Assembly: GCA_044356455.1 (NCBI GenBank) | Contig: JBIKWF010000013.1 | Coordinates: forward strand, 1-57,213 | Source: Bdellovibrionota bacterium | GTDB taxonomy: Bacteria; Bdellovibrionota_C; UBA2361; JBGSMV01 | Length of the DNA: 57,213 nucleotides | Direction: 5' to 3' | In this document: positions 1,513-57,213 of the stretch, piece after piece | Position numbering within the stretch: the first letter of the stretch is position 1 | How the letters are laid out: each line of letters opens with the position of its first letter | Position numbers and translations under genes: made by a program | Notes under the pieces: generated by a model | Database searches by the model: none | Seen by the model: the letters and a program-made list of their open reading frames with translations, nothing else | Told to the model about the DNA's origin: nothing

Positions 1513-1854
1513 TTAAGCATTCGGAAGAGGCACTGCGCTTGTCTCGCTATGCCTAAGCGTTCGTGTGGTCGTGCGACTAATGCGGAACTTCGCGCCGCAA
1601 TGCGGATCGGGACAGCTTATGTCGCAATCGGTAGTCATCCAATCAGTCGGCTGGAGCGGACGCTGCTTTGCAGGAAGAAGAGGAAGGAGCGCTGCAAGTG
1701 AGTACATCGAGAACCGAGAGACATTCTCAAAAACTAAGTTTTCTCCCTGCACAAGAAAATAACTGCCGGCAACGTGGCTGCACATGAAGGGCTTTTCGCC
1801 TCCAATAACTTCAACTTTGAGGTCGAACAGAAGAAATTCGTCGCTATGGGTCAT
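1513..1854 (-). CDS. TIGR04076-like family protein
   Basis: DLKVEV...CSH..G.YF...GENL...FSMYSLAALLPLLPAKQR...DWM..D..I.CPDP.CG; probable start MTHSDEF at 1854 with AGGA RBS. Confidence 0.75.
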   Translation of the reverse strand: MTHSDEFLLFDLKVEVIGGEKPFMCSHVAGSYFLVQGENLVFENVSRFSMYSLAALLPLLPAKQRPLQPTDWMTTDCDISCPDPHCGAKFRISRTTTRTLRHSETSAVPLPNA

Positions 1855-1971
1855 ATCAGTCCTATTGCTATGGTGGCTACGCCGTGTGCTCGGGAGGGAT
1901 TTCCGCAAGCGAGGCTTTGCCTGAGTTCGATACGTTTATTGGTGAGAAGGTATGAAATGCCCTTGCAGGGC

Positions 1972-1998
1972 AAAAAAAGCTTAGGGCTAGGCCCAGCG
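1972..1998 (-). terminator. Candidate attenuator/terminator hairpin overlapping the end of the leader ORF
   Basis: Minus strand GCTGGGC-CTA-GCCCTAAGC followed by a T7 tract. A second hairpin, TGCCC-TGCAA-GGGCA, follows. Confidence 0.4.
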
Positions 1999-2082
1999 CC
2001 AGAAAGAGAGGGCGCGCGCGGTCCGTGCCGCTCGCACTAGCGCGGCAGAAGCCAGTATTGTGTAAGAAAATAAACTAAGCAT
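1987..2082 (-). CDS. Putative Trp-containing leader peptide (31 aa)
   Basis: MLSLFSYTILASAALVRAARTARALSFWRWA*: two Trp codons next to the stop, located between trpR and the downstream cluster. Confidence 0.5.
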   Translation of the reverse strand: MLSLFSYTILASAALVRAARTARALSFWRWA

Positions 2083-2092
2083 CGCGAAGAAA

Positions 2093-2416
2093 CTATCCTC
2101 TTCTTCTTAAATATATTGAAAGGTCTTTGCCTTTCATTTCCCGCGCGCCGCGGGTCACTGTTGCAATTCCAACTCCCAACGTAGCTGAGATGTCGCGCTG
2201 CGTTTCTCCTTTGTTCAAAAGCTCGAGAATCGCCAAGCGCTGCGTAATCTGATGCAGTTCTTGGGGCGTAAGCAGCACTCGCAAAAACTCCTCAATCGCC
2301 TCGGCGTCAGCAAGGCTACTAAGTAACGCGCTTAGCCTTGTAAGGCTCCAAGACGAATGGTTCGAATTGGAAGCGCTCCTCAAGCGACCGAGTTTTTGGC
2401 GGGAGCGTTTTGCCAT
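2093..2416 (-). CDS. trpR: Trp repressor (TrpR/YerC-YecD family)
   Basis: LLTPQELHQITQRLAILELLNKGETQRDISATLGVGIATVTRG matches the TrpR helix-turn-helix signature. Confidence 0.85.
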   Translation of the reverse strand: MAKRSRQKLGRLRSASNSNHSSWSLTRLSALLSSLADAEAIEEFLRVLLTPQELHQITQRLAILELLNKGETQRDISATLGVGIATVTRGAREMKGKDLSIYLRRRG

Positions 2417-2426
2417 CCTTGGTGCA

Positions 2427-2456
2427 TATGTATCAGTGTACTAGTACGCAAGTCAA
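2427..2456 (-). promoter_or_regulatory. Sigma70-like promoter with TrpR operator upstream of trpR
   Basis: Minus strand TTGACT (-35), then GTACTAGTACACTGATAC (2447-2430), which matches the symmetric TrpR operator GTACTAGTTAACTAGTAC at 14/18 positions. Confidence 0.7.
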
Positions 2457-2813
2457 GCCAAGTTGTCACAAAAAGTTGCTGGTAAGCAGACGGGGGGCTT
2501 CTATAGCTCCGTGCAGTGCTTAAGGGGGGGAGCTACTTGAGCAGAGGAGTAGTCTCGTAACTAAAGCTACTTTTCGCCGCAGGTGCCTGCTCTTAGTGAG
2601 AGAATTAGAAAATAACCCAAGTCGCCTCTATTGCGATGGAACCAAGGCGGACATCTCAGGGAGCAGGGGGAGCTAACATGCTAAAAACATGAAGTAATAA
2701 TTTCTTCTCCCTTGGGGAGGGAAGTGTGTGGGCTCCTGTCGCTGACTGATTGCTTAAAAAGGAAGTTTCGGTATTCTCCAAGCGGTCTGTTTGGTTAATC
2801 CCTCGCAAGGAGA

Positions 2814-5800
2814 GTGCTCATGTTTTCAAGTTTTGTCGCACAAGTGAGAGCTTCCAGCTTGGTGGTCACGGGAATCGTGGCCTCGCTTACTCTATTGGTG
2901 CAATCCGCCTCTTACGCACAACCGACTCCTACGCCTCGCGTTAGGGAGGCTCAGCTTCAAGCAGTTGCCTGCTATCTTGCGGTGGACGGGGACGATGCTA
3001 TCCAATGTCAGTATTGCCCCTCCGGCCAGGCTCCTGCCCAAGTTTTCCCGCGCGGACTTGAGTACGACACCGCAACCACCTTTGTTTGTTTAGATAACTT
3101 AGGTCTCTATAATTCAGAGACAGGTCTTCGAACCGCTTCAAATTACGACGCCACGCTGGGTCGCTGGGTGATTAACGGTAAATACCTCAAGACCAACCTA
3201 CAGAGTAATGCGCCAGTAGTTGGCCGATTTGCTCGCCCCACGAATGATTTCCAAGTTAATCCAAGTGGTACTTCGAGCGCAGATGCGCGTCAGAATACGC
3301 TCTGGAGTTCGGAAGTTCACCTTTACTACTATATTAACGACTTCCGTAAGCGCTTCATAAACGACACCTTTGTTAACTCGCTCTCCCTCCCAGCCCAAGC
3401 GAGCTTAAATCTGAGGAACCGCCAGTTTCGTCCTGACTTGCAGGGGATTGTTAATTCCCGCCTGCCTTGGACCTATCCCAATGAAATCCAAAGTTTGACC
3501 CCCACTCTTTGGTCAACCTCGGTGCCCGCGAACAATTTCTTTTCTCCTTCAAGGCAGCGCCTTAATACGGTCGATCCGCTCGACTCAACAGCATTTGATC
3601 CAGAGTATGTAATTGCCCAATACGCGGGAGCAGCTGCTAATTGGATTACCTCCGGGACTGCTCAGTGGCCAGCTGATCCAACGTGGGGAACGGTTGGCAA
3701 TCTAAGCTGGCGCACGGATGTTCGCCCGGCTGTCCTTGAAGGCTTTAAGCTTTGGAGTGCCTATCGCTACTCTGGGAGAACAGAACTCAATAAGTACGCA
3801 ATGCGCGTCTATCGCCGCTGGCGTGGTTCTATCTGCGGTGGAACTAATCAGCCTGCGTGCAATAAGGGTTGGAACATCGATAATGCGATGATGTATCTCG
3901 ATTCAGCAGATCCTGTGCTGAATAACCCGACCAACGCAAGTTGGCCTGCGAATAACTCGGACGACACCCTCCTTTTCCCCTATGGAACCAATTACGGGAC
4001 AAACCAATATGGAATCCGCAATGCCTTTGGTGGGGTAGAGCACTACGGCCCACATAATGCCGAACTTGGTGGCATGTTCATCGCTGGCCTCTTTTATGAC
4101 ATTTCAAAGGAAGTGGGTCTTGGGGACTACAAGGCTGACCAGCTCTTTTGGAAGACGATTTCGCTTCTTGATCCCTCCGTCGCCATCGACATGACCACGT
4201 TTGCGGTTCGTGTGCAGCAGGCTGCCCGGGCTCTATTCCCCAATACCTCTAACCCGGCGCTTAGCTGGTATGAGCAGGATATTGTTGATGTGTTCGCTTC
4301 TCGTGGCGTGAAGATGAACGGCGTTACGAACTTCCTTGACAACGTTCCCCCTGCTATCGGAATGACCGCAAATCCTGGTCCAGGGTCTCTAATTACCGCG
4401 AGTGCGACTGTTGGTTTTGGGTCTTCAATTCCTGAGACGCAGAGAAATTCTACTACGGGATATAACTTTCTTAGTTTCTTCCAGAATGGTTACCAGGTTA
4501 CCACGCCTGGGACTCAGTATGTGACGTATCAGTTCTATAAGTTCTCGAAGTATGGACCATGCGATCAGCTTGATCTCACCAACGGGACCATAAACGCTCC
4601 GGCAGGCTCATCGAACCCAATCATGAACTATGACGGTTCAATGGCAGCCTCTTACAAGGGGAGGTCGCTCGGAAACACTCTCATCATGGCGCCTGGCCAG
4701 ACCTTGCGTTTCCTCCGTCGCCGTCAATCCTGCGTATCAGAGCAAGATGGCTACTATGCTGAAGACGTGCGTCCTTTCGGGTTTAGGGCACTTAAGGCTA
4801 TCCCGAATGGGTTTACTTTCTCGGTTGCTCGGATAGGGGCCACCTCTGGTCGCTATTCGTATCGCTTAACCGCGGTTGACCCTTCTCTGACTTTGACGGG
4901 ACCAAATACCGGCCCTGCTACCTACAACTGGACCTTTACCGAGTATAATGGCGCGGTAGTGAACGCTACGGGACAGCAAGTGGTATACAACGCGCTTATC
5001 AATCAGCCAGTTACGATTAGCGTAACAAGGGTACGCGGAGCACAAAATGACAATATCACGGTGCGTGAGCGCGGGAATGACCTTGATAGAAACAGCGGCA
5101 AGCAATTCAATCAGGATTACTGGAATCCCGGCTATGCAGTTGGATTTGATACCATTGTGAATCGACGTTTAGTCGAAGGGCACGGTTCGTACAACTCAGC
5201 ACTTAACCCAGTGGGTGGTGCGTTTGGTGTCCAAGGCCGTCGCTGGACGACGCCAAATCAGATAGTGCAGCCGCTGCGCTTTAGCACCGTTTCTCACGGT
5301 CTTGGCTCTGGCAGCAACCAGAATGGGCCTTACCGCTTCCAGGATGCGGTCTATTACAACGCTTGCATCTGGGGGGCGCGTGGCAATGTTACCCAGTTCC
5401 CTGGCTGCCATCAGAATAATGTGGGCGGTGACTATGAGATACAAGTTCCCTTTAGCCAGGTTGGGATAACCGTTGGAAGTCCCTTTGCTACCGTGACTGC
5501 AGGCAGTTACCCCGGGTACTTGTGGACGGTGAATTACCCAACCAATTGGCGTCTTGATGCGAATCGCGAGTACTATTTTGGATCGCATATTTCAGCGAGC
5601 GTCGTGAATAACGGTTACTCGTATAATGTCTGCTCGTATGCGCAGGCGGCCTGGGATGGAGCTGTCGCTGGTAATGCAGCGGATAGGTCCGATTGGCTGG
5701 CTGGCGCAAACTGGAGTGGTTCAGGCGGAGCGCCAGTGCCGCAGACCATGCGTCAATATTTGAGTTCGGCCGGTTCCGTTTCGAACTGCACCTATGCAGC

Positions 5801-36396: not shown

Positions 36397-37989
36397 CTAT
36401 TCCTCAGCCGAGCGTAGGAATACAAAGCGCTCCATGCCTTGACTCTCCACCACAAGGCGTACTCCCTTCTTAAGGTCTGCCTGCTGAATACGCTCGTAGA
36501 AATCGCTCGTCGAAGTAACCTTTTGGCCGTTTACGCTTACCACTACGTCACGAGGCTGAAGCGTCGCGCGTTCTCCTAAGCTCGACGGCTCCACTTGACG
36601 CACGACCACTCCAGTTTTGGTCTTTGTTCCTAGGCGCCTTGCGATGTCAGGTGTGAGCGCTTCTATGGAGATCCCAAGATCAACCGTAGGAGCTTCCTCT
36701 TCTTTGGCTTCTGCTTGCTGCGTTGGAAGCTCCCCAATCTTGACCGAGGCGGTCTCCTTTCGTCCGTTTCTGAGATACTCAAAATTAACCGAGGTGCCAG
36801 GAGCAGTACCTGCGATCTTATTGCGAAGCTGGTTGATATTCTTCACTGGGGTGTCATCCATGCGGATGATGATGTCGCCTTGTTTGAGTCCTGCTTTCCC
36901 GCCCGGCCCGTCTTCTTCAACGTGTCCGACGAGGGCGCCGTCAGTTCCGGCGAAATTAAAGGAGGCTGCGAGGTCCTCGGTGAGATTCTGGATGCCTACT
37001 CCAAGCCAGCCGCGCACCACTTTGCCTTTTGAAATAAGGCTCTCGAGGACGTTTTTCGCCATGCTCGCGGGAATCGCGAATCCAATTCCCATGTACCCGC
37101 CGCTACGAGAGAAAATGGCCGTATTAATGCCAACTACCTCTCCATTTAGATTTACGAGTGGCCCGCCGCTGTTACCCGGATTTATTGCTGCATCGGTTTG
37201 AATGAAATCCTCAAATTGGCCTCCGCCCATAATTGAGCGCCCCTTGGCGCTCACGATGCCGGCGGTGATGGTATTATCGAGGCCAAAGGGATTGCCTGCC
37301 GCGATCACCCATTCGCCAATCTTGAGTTCGTCTGAGTCACCCAGCTTCGCAGCAACAAGTTTGTCGGCTTTGATCTTTATGACAGCTAAGTCCGTTCGAG
37401 GATCTCGTCCAATAAGCTCCGCCTTCACCTCTCTTTCATCACTAAGTCGGACTTTTAGCTCGTCGGCGTCTCCCACGACGTGATTATTGGTAAGTATGTA
37501 GCCGGATTTGTCTACGATTACGCCAGTACCCAGGCCGGAACGGCCACCGTCATCTCCTCCTCCGCCGCCACCGGGGCCACGAAAGGGGCCAAAGCGTTCA
37601 GCAAAGTCATCGCCGAAAAAGTCTTTAAATTGCTCAAAAAACTGATCGCGCTCGTTCTTGCCACGGCGAGCGGGCTGTGGCTTCTTGATGGCGCTGATAT
37701 TAACTACCGAAGGTGTGATTTGCTTTGCTACGGCTTCAAAGGCAGAAGATAGTTCTCGTGCATGCGCAATGCCAGGAGCCGGATCCGTGTTTTCTTGAGA
37801 GTAGCTATACTGGGGGGTCAGTATGGTGAAGCTCGCGAATGCTAAAGCCGAAAATAATTTTGAGCGTGAAAGGAAAGCGCGCCTAGCGGCGTTCAAAGGG
37901 GAAACAGCAAGATTGCGAAGCACCAGATTGCTAACCACCAGATTGCTAACCACCAGATTGCTAACCAATTGAGCAGGCAGAAAAGTCAT
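36397..37989 (-). CDS. HtrA/DegP/DegQ (Do) serine protease with two PDZ domains
   Basis: LTNNHV, DLAVIK, IQTDAAINPGNSGGPL, RGWLGV. Probable start at 37989 with GAGGG RBS. Confidence 0.95.
   Translation of the reverse strand: MTFLPAQLVSNLVVSNLVVSNLVLRNLAVSPLNAARRAFLSRSKLFSALAFASFTILTPQYSYSQENTDPAPGIAHARELSSAFEAVAKQITPSVVNISAIKKPQPARRGKNERDQFFEQFKDFFGDDFAERFGPFRGPGGGGGGDDGGRSGLGTGVIVDKSGYILTNNHVVGDADELKVRLSDEREVKAELIGRDPRTDLAVIKIKADKLVAAKLGDSDELKIGEWVIAAGNPFGLDNTITAGIVSAKGRSIMGGGQFEDFIQTDAAINPGNSGGPLVNLNGEVVGINTAIFSRSGGYMGIGFAIPASMAKNVLESLISKGKVVRGWLGVGIQNLTEDLAASFNFAGTDGALVGHVEEDGPGGKAGLKQGDIIIRMDDTPVKNINQLRNKIAGTAPGTSVNFEYLRNGRKETASVKIGELPTQQAEAKEEEAPTVDLGISIEALTPDIARRLGTKTKTGVVVRQVEPSSLGERATLQPRDVVVSVNGQKVTSTSDFYERIQQADLKKGVRLVVESQGMERFVFLRSAEE
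37921..37965. repeat. 15-bp tandem repeat x3 in the protease leader region
   Basis: CACCAGATTGCTAAC three times (VSNLV units), plus a degenerate adjacent unit. Confidence 0.9.
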
Positions 37990-38154
37990 GTAACCCTCTA
38001 ATTTCTTTAAGTCCCCGTTGGGGGAGGAGCCAGTTATAGCGCCCCCGTAAGAGTATAGGCGAGTCGCCTTGTCCCGCAACAGAGGTCATTAGGACGTTTT
38101 CAGAGTGGTGAAAATTCAAACCAAAGCGTCGAAGGGGACTCTGGGAGGAGTTTG

Positions 38155-42241: not shown

Positions 42242-45200
42242 CTAAACAGAAGCGCCCATTTCCCTCATTTGCTCCAAGTAATTTTCACGGGCGACCACCC
42301 GCGGCGGGAAGAAGGGATTATGTATCAGCTTTGGGGCAACCTCACGAAGCCACCAATCTTGAACTTCATCCGGAATCTCCCCGTCAATTCTATCAAATAT
42401 CAGCGGCGGTCCCGATCGTCTCCATACCATGCCAGAGCCAGAGTCGATAACAAAGGGGGTATCAGGCGTTTGGGCGTAGCTGAACCCGTCAGCGAGAACA
42501 AGAATCGGGGCCTCTGATTTTGGAATTCCTTTGGCTCTGTTTTCAAATGCTAGGCGAGAAATTTCTTCCAGCTTGCGCAGAGTTCTGCCCCCAAATAACC
42601 TCTCTCGCTGCTCGCGTTTCTCAGCACTTAGTCCCGTGAGACTTAGGTCTTCAAGAACGAACTCAGGGGTGTACCCCTCCCTGCGCTCTTCATCCTCGCG
42701 TGTCGAAAAGTCGGGCAACTCTAGGGCCCATGGGTCTAGATCTTCTAGCTCGCCAAGAGGCGCACCCGACGCCTCGCTGCGCCTTTGCAGAGAACCCTGC
42801 GGAATAGAGAAGCCGCAGGCGTCAATGCTCTCTGCTGCCTTGTACAGATTCAAAAGATTCTCAAAGTTCATGAAGACCGTATAGAGCTCCTCATGGGCTC
42901 TCAGTAGCTTAGCCAAAATATCTTGCCGGCTAGCGATGTGCCATTTGTGAGAATGCCCGAAGTTATCGAGGTAAATTCGGTGCTGTTTGACCTGTTCCCA
43001 CTCGTGGTGCGGAGAGCTTTTAGGCGCAAATCCATTGCACAGACCTCCACCAATATTAGAGCCAGAGCCGAGATTAATCACACCTACGGCGGTGCCCATT
43101 TCTTTGCAGCGCTTCGCCAAGTTCGCGACTGTAGGTGGGTAGGCACAAAGATTCTCTCCCTGGGGGAGTGTTGAAAAGGTCTCAGGGGAAGGGTCATAGG
43201 GCACCGCAAAGGGATCAATGAAGGTGCGATAGACTCTCGTTGGCACAAGTATCTCGTGTGTGATTCCGCTTGAGTCGTAGTGGTGATTGTACTCAACGCG
43301 TGTCAAATGCTCGCCCGCGTAACTAAATTCTCTTAGGTCTGGAGGGATAATAGCCCTTTGCAACCTCAGAAAAACGAAAGTGGTCTCTGAGGCATAATCG
43401 AGGGGATGAAGAATCCGGCCAGCGCTCGATAAATTATCGACGCCAAATTCTTTAAGGATTCCAGTCTTCCAGCGGTGGAAGGGATTTCGCTGGGCATCCA
43501 ATGGGTCGGTTGCAAATACGCGCTCAGGGAGGAATCCGCGCAGAACTCGTCCTCGGCCTGGAAGCTGGTTAATGTCCGCTGCTGGTAGAATTTGAAGTCG
43601 GTCCTGTCCTGCAATTCGAAGTGCGAACTCATCAAAAGGACAGCGCCGTGAGAGCGGACTATGGCGGAAGGTGTGGGTATGCGCCCAAAAGCCATAATAG
43701 CTATCTATCTGATGCTTGAACACCCGCAAGACCTGTTCATTAAAACGAGCGAGGCGAGGCTGATTCTCTGGGGAAAGAATCGAGAAGGGTGGATTGTCCG
43801 CACCCGCTACGGCATTGGAGGGAAATGCGAGCTCAAGCTGTTCGCGGCGCTTGTCGTCTGAGGTGACGAGCATTTCGGAAATATAAGCATGAGCGGTGAG
43901 CTCAATCACGAACTTTTCTAATTCTTGGAGGCTGCTTATGCGGGATTGTTCAGGAAGCCCGTGTCCTTGAAGTACAAGACAAGCTTTGCGGATATGATCG
44001 GGCCCATCAAATATGATTGTTCTAAGGTTTGCGGGAGGGGCGAGGCGCTCGTCGTCGGATTGTGCCCCGACAATTCTTGCAACCACGTTTCTAAGACGCG
44101 ACGGCCATCCATCAGACTCGCCCTCTTGGAGCATGCGCATGGTAAAGGAGGAAAGCGCGGTAGCAAGTCGGCTCAGAGCCTGTATCTGTTGAGGGTCCTC
44201 TCCCGATTTCTCGAGCAGGGTGCCAAGCAGCGAGGTGATCGTAAAAGGCAAGTAAGAGACAGAGGCGCCAGCGCGTACAAGATTCGCTGCATAAGTCAGC
44301 TTAGTGCCAAGTTCAGATTCACGTTCTGACGCGCAATCTCGGTAAAAGCGACGGAGCGCAATAGGATCATTCGAAAAACTCTTTGCGATGGCGTTTGCGT
44401 CCGGGAGTATAGATGAATCTTTATAGGCGAGTTTCTCGAAAGCAGTGATGGTTCTTAACGCGAGGCGGAGTTCCTCGGGGCGCGAGTAGGTATCAGGGTG
44501 AGTTTCAGCCTGCAGCGAAAGAGTTCTGAGGTAATCAGCAAGCGGGGAGGAGTAGGCGGGGCGAGTCGCGGCGAGTTGGGGCAACTGCCTCTTTTCCGCA
44601 CGTCGAGACAAGGCATACCCAAAAAAGGCAGCGCGTGCCGCTGATTCTGAGCCAATGGGAGGAGTGCCAGACCATGAGCTGGTGGCACGTAAGGCATGGA
44701 GCACTGAGCCCTTAGAGCGTGAAGTGTAGGTCAGAACCTCTAAGAGGGCTCTCCAACTTTTCACGCTTGGAAGCGAAGGACACAGGGTATTCATCGCCTC
44801 GAGTGCCCCTCGCAAGGCCGTAGTTTTTTGATCCCCGGAAATCTTTGAAACAATTCGAGAGATTTGGAGGAACTGCTCTGTGCTGGGGCGAAGGAGAGCA
44901 AAATGTTCGGTCAGCTGAAAAGAGGCTCGTAATCCATAGGGCCTTGAGCCAAAGGCGCCAATCAACGATTCCAAGAGTGCTGCCTCCGCGGGTGCGTTCT
45001 CTCGCTGAGCAGCTCCCTGCGCATATTCAGCCAAGGACTGAGCGGTTTTAGGAAGCTGTTCTTGGTCGCTAAGTTTTGCAAGCAGTGGAGCGTGACGCTC
45101 TATAATCGCACGAGCCTCGAGCGGGAGGAGGCGAGGCGCTCCAAGCTCTTGCGGTTCGGTCAGCTTGACTGGAGGTTGCTTCTGACTTTGTGCGGACTTA

Positions 45201-45268
45201 TCAGACGAGCCGCCGCCTGAGTGCGAGCCATCGGGAGAATCTGGAGAAAGCAGGCGCTGGAACATCAT
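42242..45268 (-). CDS. Large hypothetical protein
   Basis: 1008-aa uninterrupted ORF; no family recognised. Confidence 0.75.
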   Translation of the reverse strand: MMFQRLLSPDSPDGSHSGGGSSDKSAQSQKQPPVKLTEPQELGAPRLLPLEARAIIERHAPLLAKLSDQEQLPKTAQSLAEYAQGAAQRENAPAEAALLESLIGAFGSRPYGLRASFQLTEHFALLRPSTEQFLQISRIVSKISGDQKTTALRGALEAMNTLCPSLPSVKSWRALLEVLTYTSRSKGSVLHALRATSSWSGTPPIGSESAARAAFFGYALSRRAEKRQLPQLAATRPAYSSPLADYLRTLSLQAETHPDTYSRPEELRLALRTITAFEKLAYKDSSILPDANAIAKSFSNDPIALRRFYRDCASERESELGTKLTYAANLVRAGASVSYLPFTITSLLGTLLEKSGEDPQQIQALSRLATALSSFTMRMLQEGESDGWPSRLRNVVARIVGAQSDDERLAPPANLRTIIFDGPDHIRKACLVLQGHGLPEQSRISSLQELEKFVIELTAHAYISEMLVTSDDKRREQLELAFPSNAVAGADNPPFSILSPENQPRLARFNEQVLRVFKHQIDSYYGFWAHTHTFRHSPLSRRCPFDEFALRIAGQDRLQILPAADINQLPGRGRVLRGFLPERVFATDPLDAQRNPFHRWKTGILKEFGVDNLSSAGRILHPLDYASETTFVFLRLQRAIIPPDLREFSYAGEHLTRVEYNHHYDSSGITHEILVPTRVYRTFIDPFAVPYDPSPETFSTLPQGENLCAYPPTVANLAKRCKEMGTAVGVINLGSGSNIGGGLCNGFAPKSSPHHEWEQVKQHRIYLDNFGHSHKWHIASRQDILAKLLRAHEELYTVFMNFENLLNLYKAAESIDACGFSIPQGSLQRRSEASGAPLGELEDLDPWALELPDFSTREDEERREGYTPEFVLEDLSLTGLSAEKREQRERLFGGRTLRKLEEISRLAFENRAKGIPKSEAPILVLADGFSYAQTPDTPFVIDSGSGMVWRRSGPPLIFDRIDGEIPDEVQDWWLREVAPKLIHNPFFPPRVVARENYLEQMREMGASV

Positions 45269-52290: not shown

Positions 52291-53403
52291 ATGAATAAAT
52301 TCTTCAGAGTATTTTTGTTTTCCTTTTTCCTGCTGTCCTCTCTTCCAGTGGCCTCAAGTGAAGAGCCAAAGAGGGAAGTTTCAGTAGGAGTAGTTCTTCA
52401 TCTGACCGGAGACTTGGCAATGCAATCGGCCGCGTTTCGGGAAGGGCTAGAACTTGCCGTTGAGGAGATCAATAACTCTCGAACCGGCATGGTATTGAAT
52501 CTAAACGTTGAGGATGGTCAGAATAACCCGAAGACTTCAAATAGCGCCGTTCAAAAGCTACTCCATCATGACGACGTCGTTGCAGTAATCCTCTCTTCCT
52601 ACTTGGACGCCATGGCAAGTGGCCCTTTGTTAGAGGCCCGAAAGATTCCGTCACTAGTTCTTTGGGACTCAAGTCCTGAGATAGATGATATTGGCGAATA
52701 TACCTTTGCAATTGGCCCTTGGACACCAAGTGCCGGAGAGGAAGCGGCTCGTTTCTCTACCGAGAAGCTCGGCGCGAAAACCGCCGCTATTGTGGTCAAT
52801 TCTGATTCATGGTCAGAAGCCGTGGGAACTTTTTTCAAGAGGGACTTCGAGAGGCGCGGCGGCAAAGTGCTAGAAGAGGTTGTCCTTGGAGCATCAGAAA
52901 CCGACTTTCGTACTGTCATTTCAAAGATAAAGAGCAAGAAGCCTGACGTTTTGTATAGCCCCTTGGTATTCAATCTGGTCCCCTTTTATTCTCAAGTAAA
53001 GCAGCTACAGCTATCTTCGACTATCGTCAGCTCCGATATCATTGCAGATGAACACATCTCGAAGGCGCCTCAGGCGTTCGAAGGTATCTTCCAGACTGGG
53101 CTCCTGGATCCAAGCTCGGAGGCCTATGGGCGAGTTGCGGCCGCTTACAAAGCGAAATATGGCCGTGAGATTTCCATGCCTTGGTTTGTGGCGGTAGGTT
53201 ATGACGCCGCTTCAATTCTTGCAGAAAGTATAAGCCGGAGCCGCGCAAGCGGCGCGGACATTAAAGATTCTTTGTATTCGCTGCAGGATTATGCGGGCGC
53301 TTCAGCTCGCATTTCCTTCAATAACAAGGGAAGTTCCCCGCAGCTTGAGCATATGTACCAGATCAAGGGCGGAAAATTGGAAATCTTGGGGCGAGACCTT
53401 TAG
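52291..53403 (+). CDS. LivK-like ABC substrate-binding protein (no cognate permease/ATPase adjacent)
   Basis: Signal peptide; VGVVL.LTG; GLELAVEEIN; DF..VI.KIK..KPDV; GYDA. Confidence 0.9.
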   Translation: MNKFFRVFLFSFFLLSSLPVASSEEPKREVSVGVVLHLTGDLAMQSAAFREGLELAVEEINNSRTGMVLNLNVEDGQNNPKTSNSAVQKLLHHDDVVAVILSSYLDAMASGPLLEARKIPSLVLWDSSPEIDDIGEYTFAIGPWTPSAGEEAARFSTEKLGAKTAAIVVNSDSWSEAVGTFFKRDFERRGGKVLEEVVLGASETDFRTVISKIKSKKPDVLYSPLVFNLVPFYSQVKQLQLSSTIVSSDIIADEHISKAPQAFEGIFQTGLLDPSSEAYGRVAAAYKAKYGREISMPWFVAVGYDAASILAESISRSRASGADIKDSLYSLQDYAGASARISFNNKGSSPQLEHMYQIKGGKLEILGRDL

Positions 53404-53582
53404 GGCTTAATATGTCGCATGGAGGTTTCTATCTCTTAGATTCGCAGGCTTGCCGAGGCAATGAAGTGCAAAATAGCAGTGCACACGAGGGCCTCTTTGG
53501 TTCGACTGCAGAAAAGTGGGTGGCACCAGGATGCCACACTTTGCGTGTTCGCAGAAGCCAATGGCCTCATGATTCCTATTTC

Positions 53583-56500
53583 TTAGGCCGCTTTTTTCCA
53601 GTAGGCGATCCATTCGAGGCCAAATTCAAAATTATTCCCAGGAAACGTGAGCAGATTTCTGAGATCTTCGAGATCCTTGATGTGGATCGCACCTTCGACT
53701 TGGTGTGAACTTATGCGCGTTCCGCCGGGTAATAGAAAGACAGGCTTTACCGGATCGAGTGCAGAACCAATGCACTCCTTGATATTCAGATACCTTCCCC
53801 CGAGTTCCTTGAGATCCAGATCCTCGCTGTCGAGCTCCCCAAGTGCGAGCATCACAAGGATGTCCCGATCGAGTTGATTAGAAAAACTGCACGTGTGCCA
53901 CTTAGTTTCTGAGCCGCCTGGCTGAAGCGGAAAACTAAATGTATAGAAAAGCTCTTTCTGATCCGGATTCTCGTCGAAGAACACCCGTGGAGTAATAGCG
54001 TCGCGGTACAGCCTTCCATTGAATTCAGCAAACGCTTCCAGGGGGCTGTAACGGTGAAGCAACCCGCTTGTCAAAACATGTCTGCGCTGCTCCGCGGGGA
54101 CATCAAGAAGCTGCGACATCCCCTCGCGCAGCGCCGCTACCCTAGCTTCTCCGCTGAGTTCCGTCTTGAAGATCTCGCGTTGGATACTAAATAGGTAATC
54201 TCGTACGTGCTCGAGATCTCTGCCCTCTTTCTTCGCAGCGAGGTGATCGATATAGCCAAGTACACCGAGAATTTCCTTATGCAGTAGGGACTGCGCGGCC
54301 AAGTCTTCAAAGAATACCTTTGGTGTTCGGCACTCAACATTCCTTTCGCGCGAAATCACGGTGTACGAAAGGTTAGTTCCCTCAAGGAGCTTGCTGTGTT
54401 TCTGATAGGTAGCCGCAATATTCTCAGCGTGCCCGCCCCATTTTATCTCAAATATTTCGTCTCCCACGCGGTAATCCGCGCGGTCTCCAAAGAATTCTCC
54501 TTTCTCATCTACCGTAAGGCAGTATTGCGGAATAACCTTCTTCTCCGGATAAGCCGCAAGGAGAAATATTCCCACCAACTGCTCAAACGCTTCGCCTTTA
54601 AGAAACGTGCTGAGCGAGGTTTTCTTAAGCTCTACGCCATTCTCAATCGAGTACTCAACAAGCGCCCTTTTACCAGTAAAGGTAGCGCGTCTCTCGCGAT
54701 GAAATTGTTTCGGAAGTACCGGCAAGTCAAGCTTTGTCGCCTCATCGACGTACTCAAGCAGCGCATCTTTCCCGGAAGCATTCTCGGAGAGAAGCATCTT
54801 TATAAATCGCCGCTCTTTTCCAGCACTCAAAGCGCTGATCTCAAGCCAGTATCCCTTCCCTTCTAAGTACTGAACAGAGTGCAACCGGGGGGCGCTTGAT
54901 GGTTGGGGGAGGCCGATACATCGCGTACTCCCAAGCTTTTCCCCATTCGGGAGCGGAAAAGTTTTCTGTGTCTGTCCAGTCGTTCCAATAAGCTCAGGGC
55001 ATGGGAGGCCCCATGGGAATGTTACCTTGCCCCGTAATTTTGCCAGTTTATAGCGCGCAGCTTGCGCAAGCTCTACCTCAGTCAAAGGCGTTAGCTCCCA
55101 TTCTCCCTTTTGATTCTCAGAGATGTTTACCCACGCCCTCTGTTTCGTGCCGTCTTTGTTGGCAGCAGAGAAACACAGCCAATATCCTTCGCCCTCTTTG
55201 TACCGAATGGAGTGCAACCGAGGGTCGCTTGAAGGCGCAGGGAGGCCGATTCCTCGCTGACTCCCGAGCTTTCCCCCATTCGGGAGCGGGAAACTTACCT
55301 GTGTCCTTCCGTTCGTTCCAATAAGCTCAGGGCATGGGAGGCCCTGTGGGAATCTTGCCTCGCCAGTATCTTTTGCAAGTTTGTAGCTGCGAGCCAGCTC
55401 TTCTGCGAATAATTGCGAAGAAGTTTTTAACTCCCATTCTCCAGGGCTCGTCTCGCAAAGCAGTACTTCTACCTCGCTCCTTGCGCCCTTTTTGTCAGCC
55501 GCAGACAAACACAGCCAATACCCTTCGCCCTCTTGGTACCGAATGGAGTGCAGACGGGGGTCGCTTGATAGATTGGCAAAACCGATACCTAGCTGACTCC
55601 CGAGCTTTCCCCCATTCGGGAACGGAAAAGTTGTCTGTGTCTGTCCAGTCGTTCCAATAAGCTCAGGGCATGGGAGACCCTGTGGGAATCTTGCCTCGCC
55701 AACGTCCTTTGCAAGGCTGTAGTTGTGAGCCATCTCTTCAGCGAACAATTGCGAAGAGGTTTTTAACTCCCACTTTCCAGGGCTCGTCTCGCAAAGAAGT
55801 ACCTCTACCTCGCTCCTTGCCCCTTTACTGTCAGCCGCAGAGAGACACAGCCAATATCCTTCGCCCTCTTTGTGCCGAATGGAGTGCAACCGAGGGTCGC
55901 TTGCTGAACGAGGGAGGCCGATTCCTCGCTGACTCCCGAGCTTTTCCCCATTCGGGAGCGGAATAGTTGTCTGTGTCGTTCCGACCGTTCCAATAAGCTC
56001 AGGGCATGGGAGGCCCTGTGGGAATGTTACCATGCCACGTAATTTTGCGAGTTTATAGCGCGCAGCTTGGGCAAGCTCTACCTGAGTAAATGGCGTTAGC
56101 TCCCATTCTCCCTTTTGATTCTCAGAGATGTTTACCCACGCCCTCACCTTCGTGCCGTCTTTGTTGGCAGCAGAGAAACACAGCCAATATCCTTCGCCCT
56201 CTTTGTACCGAATGGAGTGCAACCGAGGGTCGCTTGATGGAAAGGGGAGGCCGATACCCCGATTATCCGCGTGCTTTTCCCCATTCGGGAGCGGAAAAGT
56301 TTTCTGTGTCGTTCCGTCCGTTCCAATAAGCTCAGGGCATGGGAGGCCCTGTGAGAATGTTGCCTTGCCCCGTAATTTTGCCAGTTTGTAGCGCGCAGCT
56401 TGGGCAAGCTCTACCTGAGTAAAAGGCGTTAGCTCCCATTCTCCCTTTTGATTCTCAGAGATGTTTACCCACGCCCTCTGTTTCGTGCCGTCTTTGTTGG

Positions 56501-57213
56501 CAGCAGAGAAACACAGCCAATATCCTTCGCCCTCTTTGTACCGAATGGAGTGCAACCGAGGGTCGCTTGAAGGCGCAGGGAGGCCTATACTTCGCGAACT
56601 CCCGAGCTTTTCCCCATTCGGGAAGGGAAAATTATTCTGTGTCGCTCCGTTCTTTCCAATAAGCTCAAGGCATGGGAGGCCATCCCGGAACTTTATCTCG
56701 CCAGCGTCTTTTGCAAGTTTGTAGCTGCGAGCCAGCTCTTCAGCGAATAATTGCGAAGAAGTTTTTAACTCCCATTTTCCAGGGCTCGTCTCGCAAAGTA
56801 GTACTTCTACCTCGCTCCTTGCGCCCTTTTTGTCAGCCGCAGAGAAGCACAGCCAATATCCTTCGCCCTCTTTGAAACGAATGGAGTACAGACGGGGGTC
56901 GCTTGATGGTTGGGGGAGGCCAATACCTCGATTATCCCCGTGCTTTTCCCCATTCGGGAGCGGAAAATTTATCTGTGTCCCTCCCTTCGTTCCAATTAGC
57001 TCAGGGCATGGGAGGCCCTGTGGGAATGTTACCTTGCCCCGTAATTTTGCGAGTTTATAGCGCGCAGCTTGGGCAAGCTCTACCTGAGTAAAAGGCGATA
57101 GCTCCCATACTCCCTTTTGATTCTCAGAGATGTTTACCCACGCCCTCTGTTTCGTGCCGTCTTTGTTGGCAGCAGAGAAACACAGCCAATATCCTTCGCC
57201 CTCTTTGTACCGA
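53583..57213 (-). CDS. Large tandem-repeat protein with C-terminal PD-(D/E)xK nuclease-like domain (5'-partial)
   Basis: The frame stays open from the window end to the stop at 53583 (checked by hand beyond 56555). It contains 111/112-aa repeats, then KGEAFEQLV...IPQY...RADY...FEIKWG. Confidence 0.85.
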   Translation of the reverse strand, partial: RYKEGEGYWLCFSAANKDGTKQRAWVNISENQKGVWELSPFTQVELAQAARYKLAKLRGKVTFPQGLPCPELIGTKGGTQINFPLPNGEKHGDNRGIGLPQPSSDPRLYSIRFKEGEGYWLCFSAADKKGARSEVEVLLCETSPGKWELKTSSQLFAEELARSYKLAKDAGEIKFRDGLPCLELIGKNGATQNNFPFPNGEKLGSSRSIGLPAPSSDPRLHSIRYKEGEGYWLCFSAANKDGTKQRAWVNISENQKGEWELTPFTQVELAQAARYKLAKLRGKATFSQGLPCPELIGTDGTTQKTFPLPNGEKHADNRGIGLPFPSSDPRLHSIRYKEGEGYWLCFSAANKDGTKVRAWVNISENQKGEWELTPFTQVELAQAARYKLAKLRGMVTFPQGLPCPELIGTVGTTQTTIPLPNGEKLGSQRGIGLPRSASDPRLHSIRHKEGEGYWLCLSAADSKGARSEVEVLLCETSPGKWELKTSSQLFAEEMAHNYSLAKDVGEARFPQGLPCPELIGTTGQTQTTFPFPNGGKLGSQLGIGFANLSSDPRLHSIRYQEGEGYWLCLSAADKKGARSEVEVLLCETSPGEWELKTSSQLFAEELARSYKLAKDTGEARFPQGLPCPELIGTNGRTQVSFPLPNGGKLGSQRGIGLPAPSSDPRLHSIRYKEGEGYWLCFSAANKDGTKQRAWVNISENQKGEWELTPLTEVELAQAARYKLAKLRGKVTFPWGLPCPELIGTTGQTQKTFPLPNGEKLGSTRCIGLPQPSSAPRLHSVQYLEGKGYWLEISALSAGKERRFIKMLLSENASGKDALLEYVDEATKLDLPVLPKQFHRERRATFTGKRALVEYSIENGVELKKTSLSTFLKGEAFEQLVGIFLLAAYPEKKVIPQYCLTVDEKGEFFGDRADYRVGDEIFEIKWGGHAENIAATYQKHSKLLEGTNLSYTVISRERNVECRTPKVFFEDLAAQSLLHKEILGVLGYIDHLAAKKEGRDLEHVRDYLFSIQREIFKTELSGEARVAALREGMSQLLDVPAEQRRHVLTSGLLHRYSPLEAFAEFNGRLYRDAITPRVFFDENPDQKELFYTFSFPLQPGGSETKWHTCSFSNQLDRDILVMLALGELDSEDLDLKELGGRYLNIKECIGSALDPVKPVFLLPGGTRISSHQVEGAIHIKDLEDLRNLLTFPGNNFEFGLEWIAYWKKAA
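54800..57213 (-). repeat. Intragenic 333/336-bp tandem repeat array
   Basis: Anchor CATGGGAG (LPC codons) at 55000, 55333, 55669, 56005, 56338, 56671, 57007; spacings 333, 336, 336, 333, 333, 336. Confidence 0.95.

Follow-up and report, generated by a model that had tools for sequence, protein, structure and literature searches.

A 111/112-residue repeat array of undescribed type joined to a PD-(D/E)xK nuclease in an uncultured lake Bdellovibrionota bacterium: a candidate natural modular DNA-targeting nuclease

The gene described here comes from an uncultured lake bacterium and encodes a repeat-array nuclease, P0081 (1315 aa), in which a short leader is followed by eight repeats of 111/112 aa, then by a basic linker and finally by a PD-(D/E)xK nuclease. 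The repeat is a module of undescribed type, with no family or solved-fold match. We consider P0081 to be, probably, a natural modular sequence-reading nuclease, similar to zinc-finger nucleases and TALENs and aimed at foreign DNA.

The window, that is the whole 57,213-nucleotide stretch analysed, is the entire contig C97. As predicted, it contains a frame of at least 1200 aa running past its edge: the minus-strand frame 57212-53583 has 1209 aa and stays open where the window ends. The 5' part of the gene was located at one end of contig C112, which has an exact 57-bp overlap with C97. Positions 53583..57212 (minus strand) hold the 3' 1209 codons, and the first 106 aa (a leader of about 45-60 aa and the start of repeat 1) are outside the window at G000:C112:53560-53982 (plus strand). 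Retrieval of the full gene, proposed as a check, recovered P0081, which has eight cores and joins the two frames; its N-terminus is identical letter by letter to the C112 frame and its C-terminus to the window frame, and it is recorded on a 9,203-bp contig.

Like the corresponding genes in G057, G078 and G087, this one is broken at a contig end within the array, which would suit a misassembly or a meaningless repeat expansion. The probability of such an origin is negligible. Every repeat unit is distinct, a database contig spanning the array encodes the identical protein, 67 relatives have the repeat and pN is below pS outside the variable sites, which together rule it out. Nor is the array an artefact by its DNA, because the longest exact run common to two units is only 164 bp. 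Pieces of the P0081 gene were also present in lake-metagenome contigs from 4 of 4 runs examined (4 studies), nearly all at 99%+ identity, although no contig spans the entire P0081 stretch and one of the runs is possibly the source sample.

Seven LPC[PL]ELIG cores occur in the window, spaced by 112, 111, 111, 112, 112 and 111 aa. The original prediction had this number right but counted the capping repeat as an extra eighth; the cap is itself the seventh core, and eight are reached only in the full gene. The window thus contains six full units, a seventh that diverges and forms the cap, and 66 aa of one more unit cut off by the edge. The units fall into two types, A with 111 aa and B with 112 aa, and 88-99 residues are identical within a type. 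The description of the repeats as near-identical holds only within a type, because units of different type share just 58-66 residues. All units are on the minus strand, and their variable residues were read at profile positions 32/34/37/50/57. The second half of repeat 1 (type A) is at 57015..57212, followed by repeat 2 (type B, 112 aa; 56679..57014; K,G,I,N,Q), repeat 3 (type A, 111 aa; 56346..56678; N,A,N,S,A), repeat 4 (type A; 56013..56345; D,T,K,N,F), repeat 5 (type B; 55677..56012; V,T,T,Q,R), repeat 6 (type B; 55341..55676; T,Q,T,Q,N), repeat 7 (type A; 55008..55340; N,R,V,Q,A) and repeat 8, the capping unit with a divergent second half (54747..55007; T,Q,K,T,Q).

The AlphaFold2 model of the repeat is confident (pLDDT 94) and depicts a 111-aa alpha/beta domain, part of which is a four-strand meander with a helix. 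The expectation that the repeat would match no known family was borne out: there was no credible match in Pfam, NCBIfam, PHROG, PADLOC or PDB, the PDB having been searched by sequence as well, and none in the Atlas. No chain among 48,161 (VIA) reached Z>=5; the best Z was 4.7, and no known DNA-binding fold was resembled. The repeat has no conserved Cys/His metal motif. TAL_effector gave no Pfam match at E<=10, and the 111/112-aa period and alpha/beta model differ from the 33-35-aa two-helix repeat of TALEs and the TALE-like RipTAL, Bat, MOrTL and STAR proteins. PPR/OPR-RAP, ankyrin, LRR and C2H2 zinc fingers were likewise absent from the Pfam matches at E<=10 and differ in period and predicted secondary structure. 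Several resemblances were rejected. Pfam Rcc01698_C is a chance match, above the cut-off only because the scores of a 28-aa piece add up across the repeats, NCBIfam megatron is another (17 bits vs 800), and Foldseek matches of the repeat to beta-propellers and viral proteins (pdb, viral) have TM<0.2 and rmsd of ~15-50. Resemblances to B3, AbrB and PUR/Whirly were unsupported by the structure search (nothing at Z>=5). The mostly open-access literature searched contained no account of the P0081 repeat.

Positions 32, 34, 37, 50 and 57 were the most variable among sibling repeats of 16 proteins. Such fixed hypervariable positions, as in TALEs and zinc fingers, support the original interpretation. 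In the P0081 gene, with the five sites defined from other proteins only, pN was 0.62 vs pS 0.26 at these sites, and pN 0.13 and pS 0.23 outside them (9 pairs; pairs are not mutually independent). All 6 of the arrays tested had an excess of residue diversity at the five sites, among them the later-found L074 and L086, which are not fully independent tests because their relatives helped to define the sites. The selection signal was weaker in G015 (pN 0.51 vs pS 0.41/0.30), G070 (0.29 vs 0.21/0.26) and G011 (one pair; 0.68 vs 0.63/0.16), and in P0022 the variability was more spread out along the repeat. The five sites lie outside the four-strand meander, in a usually basic loop at profile positions 28-58. 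This segment was net positive in 76% of 270 repeats, whereas the remainder of the repeat was net negative in 56%. It has few aromatics, and Q, T, N, R, K and S make up 62% of residues at positions 32, 34, 37 and 50 vs ~32% overall.

Downstream of the array on the minus strand are an LPxxF motif with a basic, low-confidence linker (54597..54716; 8 K/R, 4 D/E), a region whose net charge is basic in 19 of the 20 homologues aligned, and the PD-(D/E)xK nuclease core (54282..54638). The core has the motif KGxxFEQ...RxD...ExKWG, with E983 (codon 54584-54582), D1019 (54476-54474), E1028 (54449-54447) and K1030 (54443-54441) in P0081 numbering. A four-helix bundle with conserved RDYLY, R and LEA motifs is located 3' of the core (54066..54281), followed by a C-terminal alpha/beta tail, partly of low confidence, which ends in -KKAA (53586..54065). 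Several homologues also end in -AA; nothing is drawn from this, because -AA is the commonest ending in the genome (61 of 2427 frames in G000). The catalytic E, D, E and K (E165/D201/E210/K212 of A4) were invariant in 20 of 20 aligned homologues, due in part to the motif-based collection of these homologues, and are placed on one helix and two strands of the model. Foldseek alone found nothing at E<=0.001 for the C-terminal part. Fold matches over model residues ~147-265 were mostly PD-(D/E)xK enzymes, the best being AF1548 (1y88; Z 7.4, rmsd 4.5, 142 aligned), followed by XisH-type 2okf (5.7), LmuA (5.6), Card1 (5.4), BspD6I (5.3), NgoMIV (5.1) and FokI (4.5); Can1/Can2, I-Bth0305I and cap-snatching endonucleases were also matched. 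Many REase-fold chains scored 4.3-5.7, and every nuclease was below Z 8. Atlas leads were Tox-REase-7 and MunI (0.87), and there was no Tox-REase Pfam match and no RAP family match. By motif and modelled core fold, the C-terminal domain belongs to the PD-(D/E)xK superfamily, as predicted. We found neither a known structural or adhesin domain without nucleic-acid binding in the repeats, nor another fold at the C-terminus, nor an assembly artefact, the three outcomes against which the original prediction had been set.

The repeat profile search gave 70 representatives, 67 of them with 1-19 repeats, so homologues of differing repeat number, which had been suggested as a search, do exist; P0049, P0068 and P0071 were dropped since they had no repeat domain after iteration. 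In total 289 repeat domains were collected, and a reversed-sequence control gave 0. Among the 70, eight carry the nuclease, 15 a conserved variant of its active site (D..PN..HxKW; a large clade of nuclease relatives has an altered site) and seven an SNF2 helicase, three of these seven being named Omnitrophota. The recognised partners (nuclease 8/70, SNF2 helicase 7/70) are enzymes acting on DNA. The SNF2-type repeat is linked to the P0081 repeat with moderate support (hhalign probability 79%, E 1.6e-5, equal period, reciprocal matches). By regex tally 41 of the 70 have no nuclease or helicase motif, but many of these are fragments and four have SNF2 by Pfam; the full-length P0027, P0042, P0046 and P0065 seemingly have no enzyme domain. 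Elsewhere the nuclease bears repeat arrays of at least three other kinds; their matches to HNH_repeat, wHTH (DnaD_N) and HhH are weak, being below cut-off or summed over repeats. One of these, an archaeal 78-aa repeat, is unrelated to the 111-aa repeat (hhalign 0.2%). In a nuclease tree built without L076 (a motif variant), clades follow array type, the labels of L014 and P0080 being by eye or from partial matches. Among close orthologues, repeat number and variable residues change while the nucleases are 85-99% identical: P0077 and P0079 (nuclease 99% identical) differ in the second repeat at variable sites, L074 and P0009 (93%) have 6 vs 4 repeats, and G011-type orthologues have 2-4 repeats.

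Diversifying surface residues would fit a protein arms race equally well, and the ligands of the repeats might be proteins or surfaces (a host receptor, part of an uptake route, or phage proteins acting as trigger), with the nuclease as a non-specific toxin or defence effector, cf. ankyrin-repeat Tox-REase-8 or sensor-activated nucleases. We regard this as unlikely, though it is the strongest of the alternatives. The arrays without enzyme in some full-length relatives are in its favour, as are the ligand-activated Card1 and Can1/Can2 and LmuA among the best fold matches; PMC3482391 describes Tox-REase-8 as ankyrin-linked and without immunity genes. Against it stand the basic, Q/N/R/K/T/S-rich variable segment with few aromatics, the DNA enzymes among the recognised partners and the resemblance, by weak matches, of alternative arrays on the same nuclease to HTH/HhH modules. 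In addition, the query had 0 matches in the PADLOC 2023 library, and 4 families were each matched by a single member among 20. The prediction had left open a defence protein or an effector; an effector is favoured, there being no defence-system match and no such neighbours.

It is also very improbable that the modules read RNA, ssDNA or modified bases in an OPR-RAP-like or type IV-like enzyme. The four-strand meander with its helix faintly resembles Pur-alpha (Z 3.6-3.7) and, at Z 4.1, a viral DNA glycosylase, and cap-snatching endonucleases are among the nuclease matches; RAP domains are PD-(D/E)xK-like (PMC8190603). However, these Pur-alpha and glycosylase scores are at background level and the variable sites lie off the meander. 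SNF2 enzymes act on duplex DNA, which also counts against RNA or ssDNA reading.

A terminator-like hairpin, a consensus match only, is located directly 3' of the stop codon (53520..53537, minus strand); the search found 2 sites vs 0.4 in shuffles. The next gene encodes a periplasmic binding protein (52291-53403, plus strand) and is convergent, so there is no co-transcribed downstream partner. Across nine regions compared there were no shared neighbours except between close kin (L086/G011, both DUF3833), and the flanks differed, with no fixed insertion site and no intron or intein host gene as in homing endonucleases. The adjacent cognate methyltransferase of Type II/IIS restriction-modification systems is absent: no DNA methyltransferase family was present among 50 neighbours scanned (~25 loci), though a small-molecule-type methyltransferase lies several genes off in G000 and another beside L075. 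No immunity partner was seen near the repeat-nuclease loci, whose genes are solitary, and the downstream immunity gene and trafficking domain of polymorphic toxins are absent at the locus.

A DNA-reading nuclease could also act in its own cell, in methyltransferase-free restriction of phages and plasmids or as a free-standing homing-type selfish gene, but we judge this more doubtful still than protein binding. Nuclease-type members have no signal peptide, the spread is patchy (8/91 genomes of the order, 0/4 same-family genomes) and the gene is within a ~16-kb accessory block that is missing at that place in G001 (its FMN-reductase neighbour was not found in the 4 same-family genomes); on sister nucleases, an array with a sub-cutoff match to HNH_repeat is reminiscent of homing endonucleases. 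On the other hand, the loci differ among the genomes examined without a common insertion site, viral contigs had no relative of the nuclease, and defence neighbours were absent except for one adjoining SNF2 gene in L076. The large clade with an altered active site argues against it too, and several Omnitrophota-type relatives have hydrophobic N-termini and look secreted.

For the favoured reading, a nuclease that reads foreign DNA, we infer DNA binding, a recognition code, cleavage, a target and export of P0081 along the following lines. Each ~111-aa repeat would be an independently folded alpha/beta domain, as modelled, whose five hypervariable, mostly polar loop residues may read a short nucleic-acid subsite, most likely of dsDNA. 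Eight consecutive modules would read a long target, and the PD-(D/E)xK domain on its basic linker would be brought to cut beside it. In evolution, arrays would acquire new targets as modules are duplicated, lost or altered at single positions, with the nuclease unchanged. The target is likely foreign because no methyltransferase or immunity gene was seen, and self-damage is most likely avoided since the long target would belong to prey, host or their mobile DNA. Export may perhaps proceed through a non-flagellar type III apparatus; the genome has FlhA and two SctV-like genes, both of the latter below the curated cut-off, and the P0081 leader is polar as judged by eye.

With rather less than even confidence, we suggest that these modules form a new class of programmable DNA binders with no known fold, serving host-dependent or predatory microbes as natural TALEN/ZFN-type weapons. 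Up to 19 modules, each reading a few bases via about five residues, would steer a nuclease, a variant-site domain or an SNF2 motor to selected sequences in the genome of another organism, and the nuclease would be a chassis that independently took on at least four reader arrays in bacteria and archaea. If so, the hundreds of natural variants of this new module would open its code to direct testing, and the module might become a new scaffold for editing. Such modules would also point to site-specific attack on, or manipulation of, partner genomes by uncultured microbes with a predatory or epibiotic life, which bears on an unsettled question in Omnitrophota and Bdellovibrionota. Should the modules turn out to bind protein, they would still represent a fold not described before, under diversifying selection and linked to nucleases and SNF2 helicases.

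To our knowledge, a modular code for reading DNA is confined to a small number of protein families (zinc fingers, and TALEs with their relatives), and DNA nucleases built on such repeat arrays are known mainly as engineered tools. I-TevI and I-HmuI are modular homing endonucleases with separate binding and cutting domains on a linker. Linker-joined binding and cutting domains, as in P0081, are also found in I-Bth0305I and the Type IIS enzymes FokI and BspD6I, all of which are among the fold matches. However, none of these enzymes binds through a long array of a single hypervariable module, and no intron, intein, fixed insertion site or methyltransferase was seen with P0081. Like P0081, C2H2 zinc-finger arrays and ZFNs (e.g. 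PRDM9-type) have folded modules with fast-changing contact residues, remodelled by duplication and loss; the P0081 module differs in being four times larger, prokaryotic and without a conserved Cys/His metal motif.

Tox-REase-7 (PMC3482391) has a C-terminal REase domain with GxxxE, D and ExK like that of P0081, and Tox-REase-8 has repeats and no immunity gene; P0081 differs from both in having no Tox-REase Pfam match and no RHS, ankyrin or filamentous repeats or immunity neighbour. OPR-RAP and FASTK proteins (PMC8190603; see also PMC5449608) also have an N-terminal target-choice region and a C-terminal restriction-endonuclease-like domain, but they act on organellar RNA through helical repeats, whereas the P0081 repeat is alpha/beta and there is no RAP match.

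Like P0081, TALEs/TALENs and STAR proteins (PMC11417379) are bacterial and have tandem near-identical modules with fixed variable positions and varying copy number, and in TALENs the array is likewise coupled to a PD-(D/E)xK nuclease (FokI, matched at Z 4.5). P0081 is not a TALE: its module, an alpha/beta domain of 111 aa, has five spread variable sites, against a 34-aa helical hairpin with two adjacent ones (RVD at 12-13), and there is no sequence or fold match. The term TALEN-like describes the logic of the system and fails for the module. The logic of the P0081 module is nearer that of zinc-finger arrays than that of the TALE repeat, which is helical and 34 aa long, and the nuclease fusion that was engineered in TALENs is natural in P0081.

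The repeat-array nuclease frame lies on the minus strand at 57212-53583. It is real and, as the original prediction stated, runs open past the window edge, where contig C97 also ends. Inside the window it comprises six full 111/112-aa units, one incomplete unit and a capping unit of divergent sequence; a C-terminal part of about 390 aa comes after them. There are two types of unit, with 88-99 residues identical within a type and 58-66 between types, and the longest exact stretch common to any two units is 164 bases. The missing 5' end of the gene was located at the end of contig C112, which overlaps C97 by 57 bp. The full gene was retrieved as the database protein P0081, whose 1315 aa are encoded on a contig of 9.2 kb; this protein starts as the C112 frame, ends as the window frame and has eight cores in total. 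In genome G001 of the same genus, ileS directly adjoins a SctN/FliI-type ATPase gene whose counterpart in the source genome (G000) is on C112. The C112-C97 join is therefore consistent with gene order, and about 16 kb of additional genes, including the nuclease gene, lie between ileS and the ATPase in G000. DNA of the gene was also recovered in lake metagenomes from several studies. Elsewhere in the window, a 15-bp tandem repeat of 3.9 copies (37910-37967) is close to where the gene at 36400-38085 begins, and a 1008-aa orphan (42242-45268, minus strand), which has no Pfam match and whose N-terminus is polar and of low complexity, is possibly another effector.

The predicted restriction-endonuclease-like domain at the C-terminus was borne out by the catalytic motif and by fold matches. 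Residues E, D, E and K are invariant in an alignment of 20 homologues, a set gathered partly by motif, which bears on this invariance; KGxxFEQ, PQYCL, RxD and ExKWG are kept too, and a basic linker precedes the nuclease in 19 of the 20 aligned rows. The AlphaFold2 model of the C-terminal part had a pLDDT of 79.9. Foldseek gave no match for the nuclease part, and in the VIA structure comparison model residues ~147-265 aligned mostly with restriction-endonuclease folds, AF1548 being the best (Z 7.4), followed by 2okf (5.7), LmuA (5.6), Card1 (5.4), BspD6I (5.3), NgoMIV (5.1) and FokI (4.5). Though every single Z is middling, the PD-(D/E)xK assignment is secure because motif, topology and the agreement across these matches support it. 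A 1051-aa orphan frame of G000 (C95:7222-10374, minus strand), near type III export-looking genes, also has a distant PD-(D/E)xK-like stretch with weak matches.

The repeat was expected to fall outside known families, and no credible match for it was found in Pfam, NCBIfam, PHROGs, PADLOC, PDB sequences or Atlas. A three-repeat model (pLDDT 93.7, pTM 0.71) predicts a helix, a strand, an irregular hairpin region and a four-strand meander, in that order. None of 48,161 solved chains reached Z 5 against the repeat model, and its Foldseek matches were spurious. Homologues with differing repeat number do exist: a profile run against 1.84 billion representatives recovered 70 proteins, 67 of which hold 1-19 repeats after iteration (289 domains). 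By a regex tally, active-type nuclease motifs occur in 8 of the profile-search proteins, a variant site in 15 and neither in 41. Because KG, D, R, PN and HxKW are invariant in 13/13 members, the variant-site clade is conserved, not decayed; its invariant D-R, P-N and H-x-K-W replace the catalytic motif, as in an altered enzyme or a pseudo-nuclease. This clade, with 2-11 repeats, includes L003:1309-4797, L006:1-2997, L046:31-3090, P0004, P0005 and P0014, and genome G015 has two paralogues. A SNF2 helicase is joined to the array in seven long proteins (6/30 in one set, 1/18 in another), three of which fall in clusters named Omnitrophota; confidence that the SNF2-fused repeat is kin to the 111-aa repeat is moderate. 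Eight Omnitrophota-type proteins (P0022, P0033, P0046, P0051, P0055, P0061, P0064, P0065), most with a common conserved N-terminal domain, have a C-terminal GGID motif; between the ends come the repeat array and a cargo that varies (SNF2, methyltransferase, kinase-like or GNAT). They resemble a secreted cargo family.

Variation among repeats is concentrated at profile positions 32, 34, 37, 50 and 57, which differ in 73-92% of close sibling-repeat pairs of the same protein, beside an invariant G33. At these five sites, defined without the P0081 gene, pN in that gene was 0.62 vs a pS of 0.23-0.26, and pN in the remainder of the repeat was 0.13; in G015, G070 and G011 the effect had the same direction with less strength. 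In 6/6 arrays, which are partly dependent sets, residues were more diverse at the five sites than in the rest of the core. Between orthologues with nucleases 85-99% identical, both the repeat number (2, 3, 4; 4 vs 6) and the five-site residues change. Such a pattern would be expected if these sites formed a surface that sets specificity and is being retargeted. They are enriched in Q, T, N, R, K and S, and 76% of 270 repeats have a net positive charge in the segment holding them. A G056 homologue (L009:803-1156 and 1116-2756) is frameshifted within the array, either really or by assembly error.

The same nuclease is also fused with a ~78-aa helical repeat (4-8 copies, in loci titled archaea or metagenomic), with a repeat weakly resembling the homing-endonuclease-associated repeat and with a ~80-aa winged-helix-like repeat. 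Pfam matches of these arrays are weak or summed and point to DNA-binding helices. Since the nuclease carries other, probably DNA-binding, repeats, the 111-aa array occupies their slot, and we consider it unlikely that its repeats bind protein beside a non-specific nuclease. Nuclease clades follow array type (6 changes on the tree vs 13.7 when shuffled), with labels shared among kin. The helical repeat (~77-79 aa), unrelated to the 111-aa repeat, is a second candidate reader array, found at L013:4095-6401 and L016:6690-9062 (both titled as archaea), L076:3943-7134, L077:1337-4408, L078:436-2643 and L083:62-1777. HNH_repeat-like (two tandem paralogues) or winged-helix-like arrays are at L073:1-1503 and 1796-3757, L081:3-1739 and L082:1-1650.

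The 111-aa repeat was found in 8/91 genomes of the order and 0/33 further genomes of the phylum, all incomplete MAGs. Genes flanking the nuclease differ between loci, and 50 scanned neighbours included no DNA methyltransferase and no known immunity or defence gene, bar one adjacent SNF2 gene; an intracellular restriction or homing role appears rather doubtful. G000 carries FlhA plus two SctV-like genes (C184:9609-16570 and C7:16973-18841), one of which adjoins genes that by eye look like a Tad pilus. Myxococcus is described in PMC12075869 as killing prey with a Tad pilus together with a needleless T3SS, and export of the P0081 protein is hypothesized. G000 also has unusually many Flagellin_N matches above cut-off (24); most of these lie in frames of 430-640 aa that are spread across many contigs.

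We favour, with some reserve, a reading in which the array would recognize a long DNA site, one module after another, and place the nuclease there, the target probably being foreign DNA. That the modules read RNA, ssDNA or modified bases seems very improbable. As to the proposal of a modular array directing a nuclease, the array and the nuclease were confirmed, fixed variable sites came in addition, and the interpretation as a whole is strengthened and partly supported. Literature searches gave no description of the 111-aa repeat. The comparison drew on PMC12419801, PMC3482391 and PMC8190603 among others; PMC11417379 describes STAR, MOON and pTERF, its main text naming neither Bdellovibrio nor Omnitrophota, and the available text of 10.1101/2023.11.21.568195 leaves SNF2 unmentioned. 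Our verdict is that the repeat family is new and has no match among the solved folds compared; it diversifies at fixed sites and occurs in fusion with DNA enzymes. Its proposed working logic is that of a TALEN or ZFN, while the tested features set it apart from TALE, zinc finger and PPR/OPR-RAP proteins, as well as from restriction-modification systems, polymorphic toxins and homing endonucleases.
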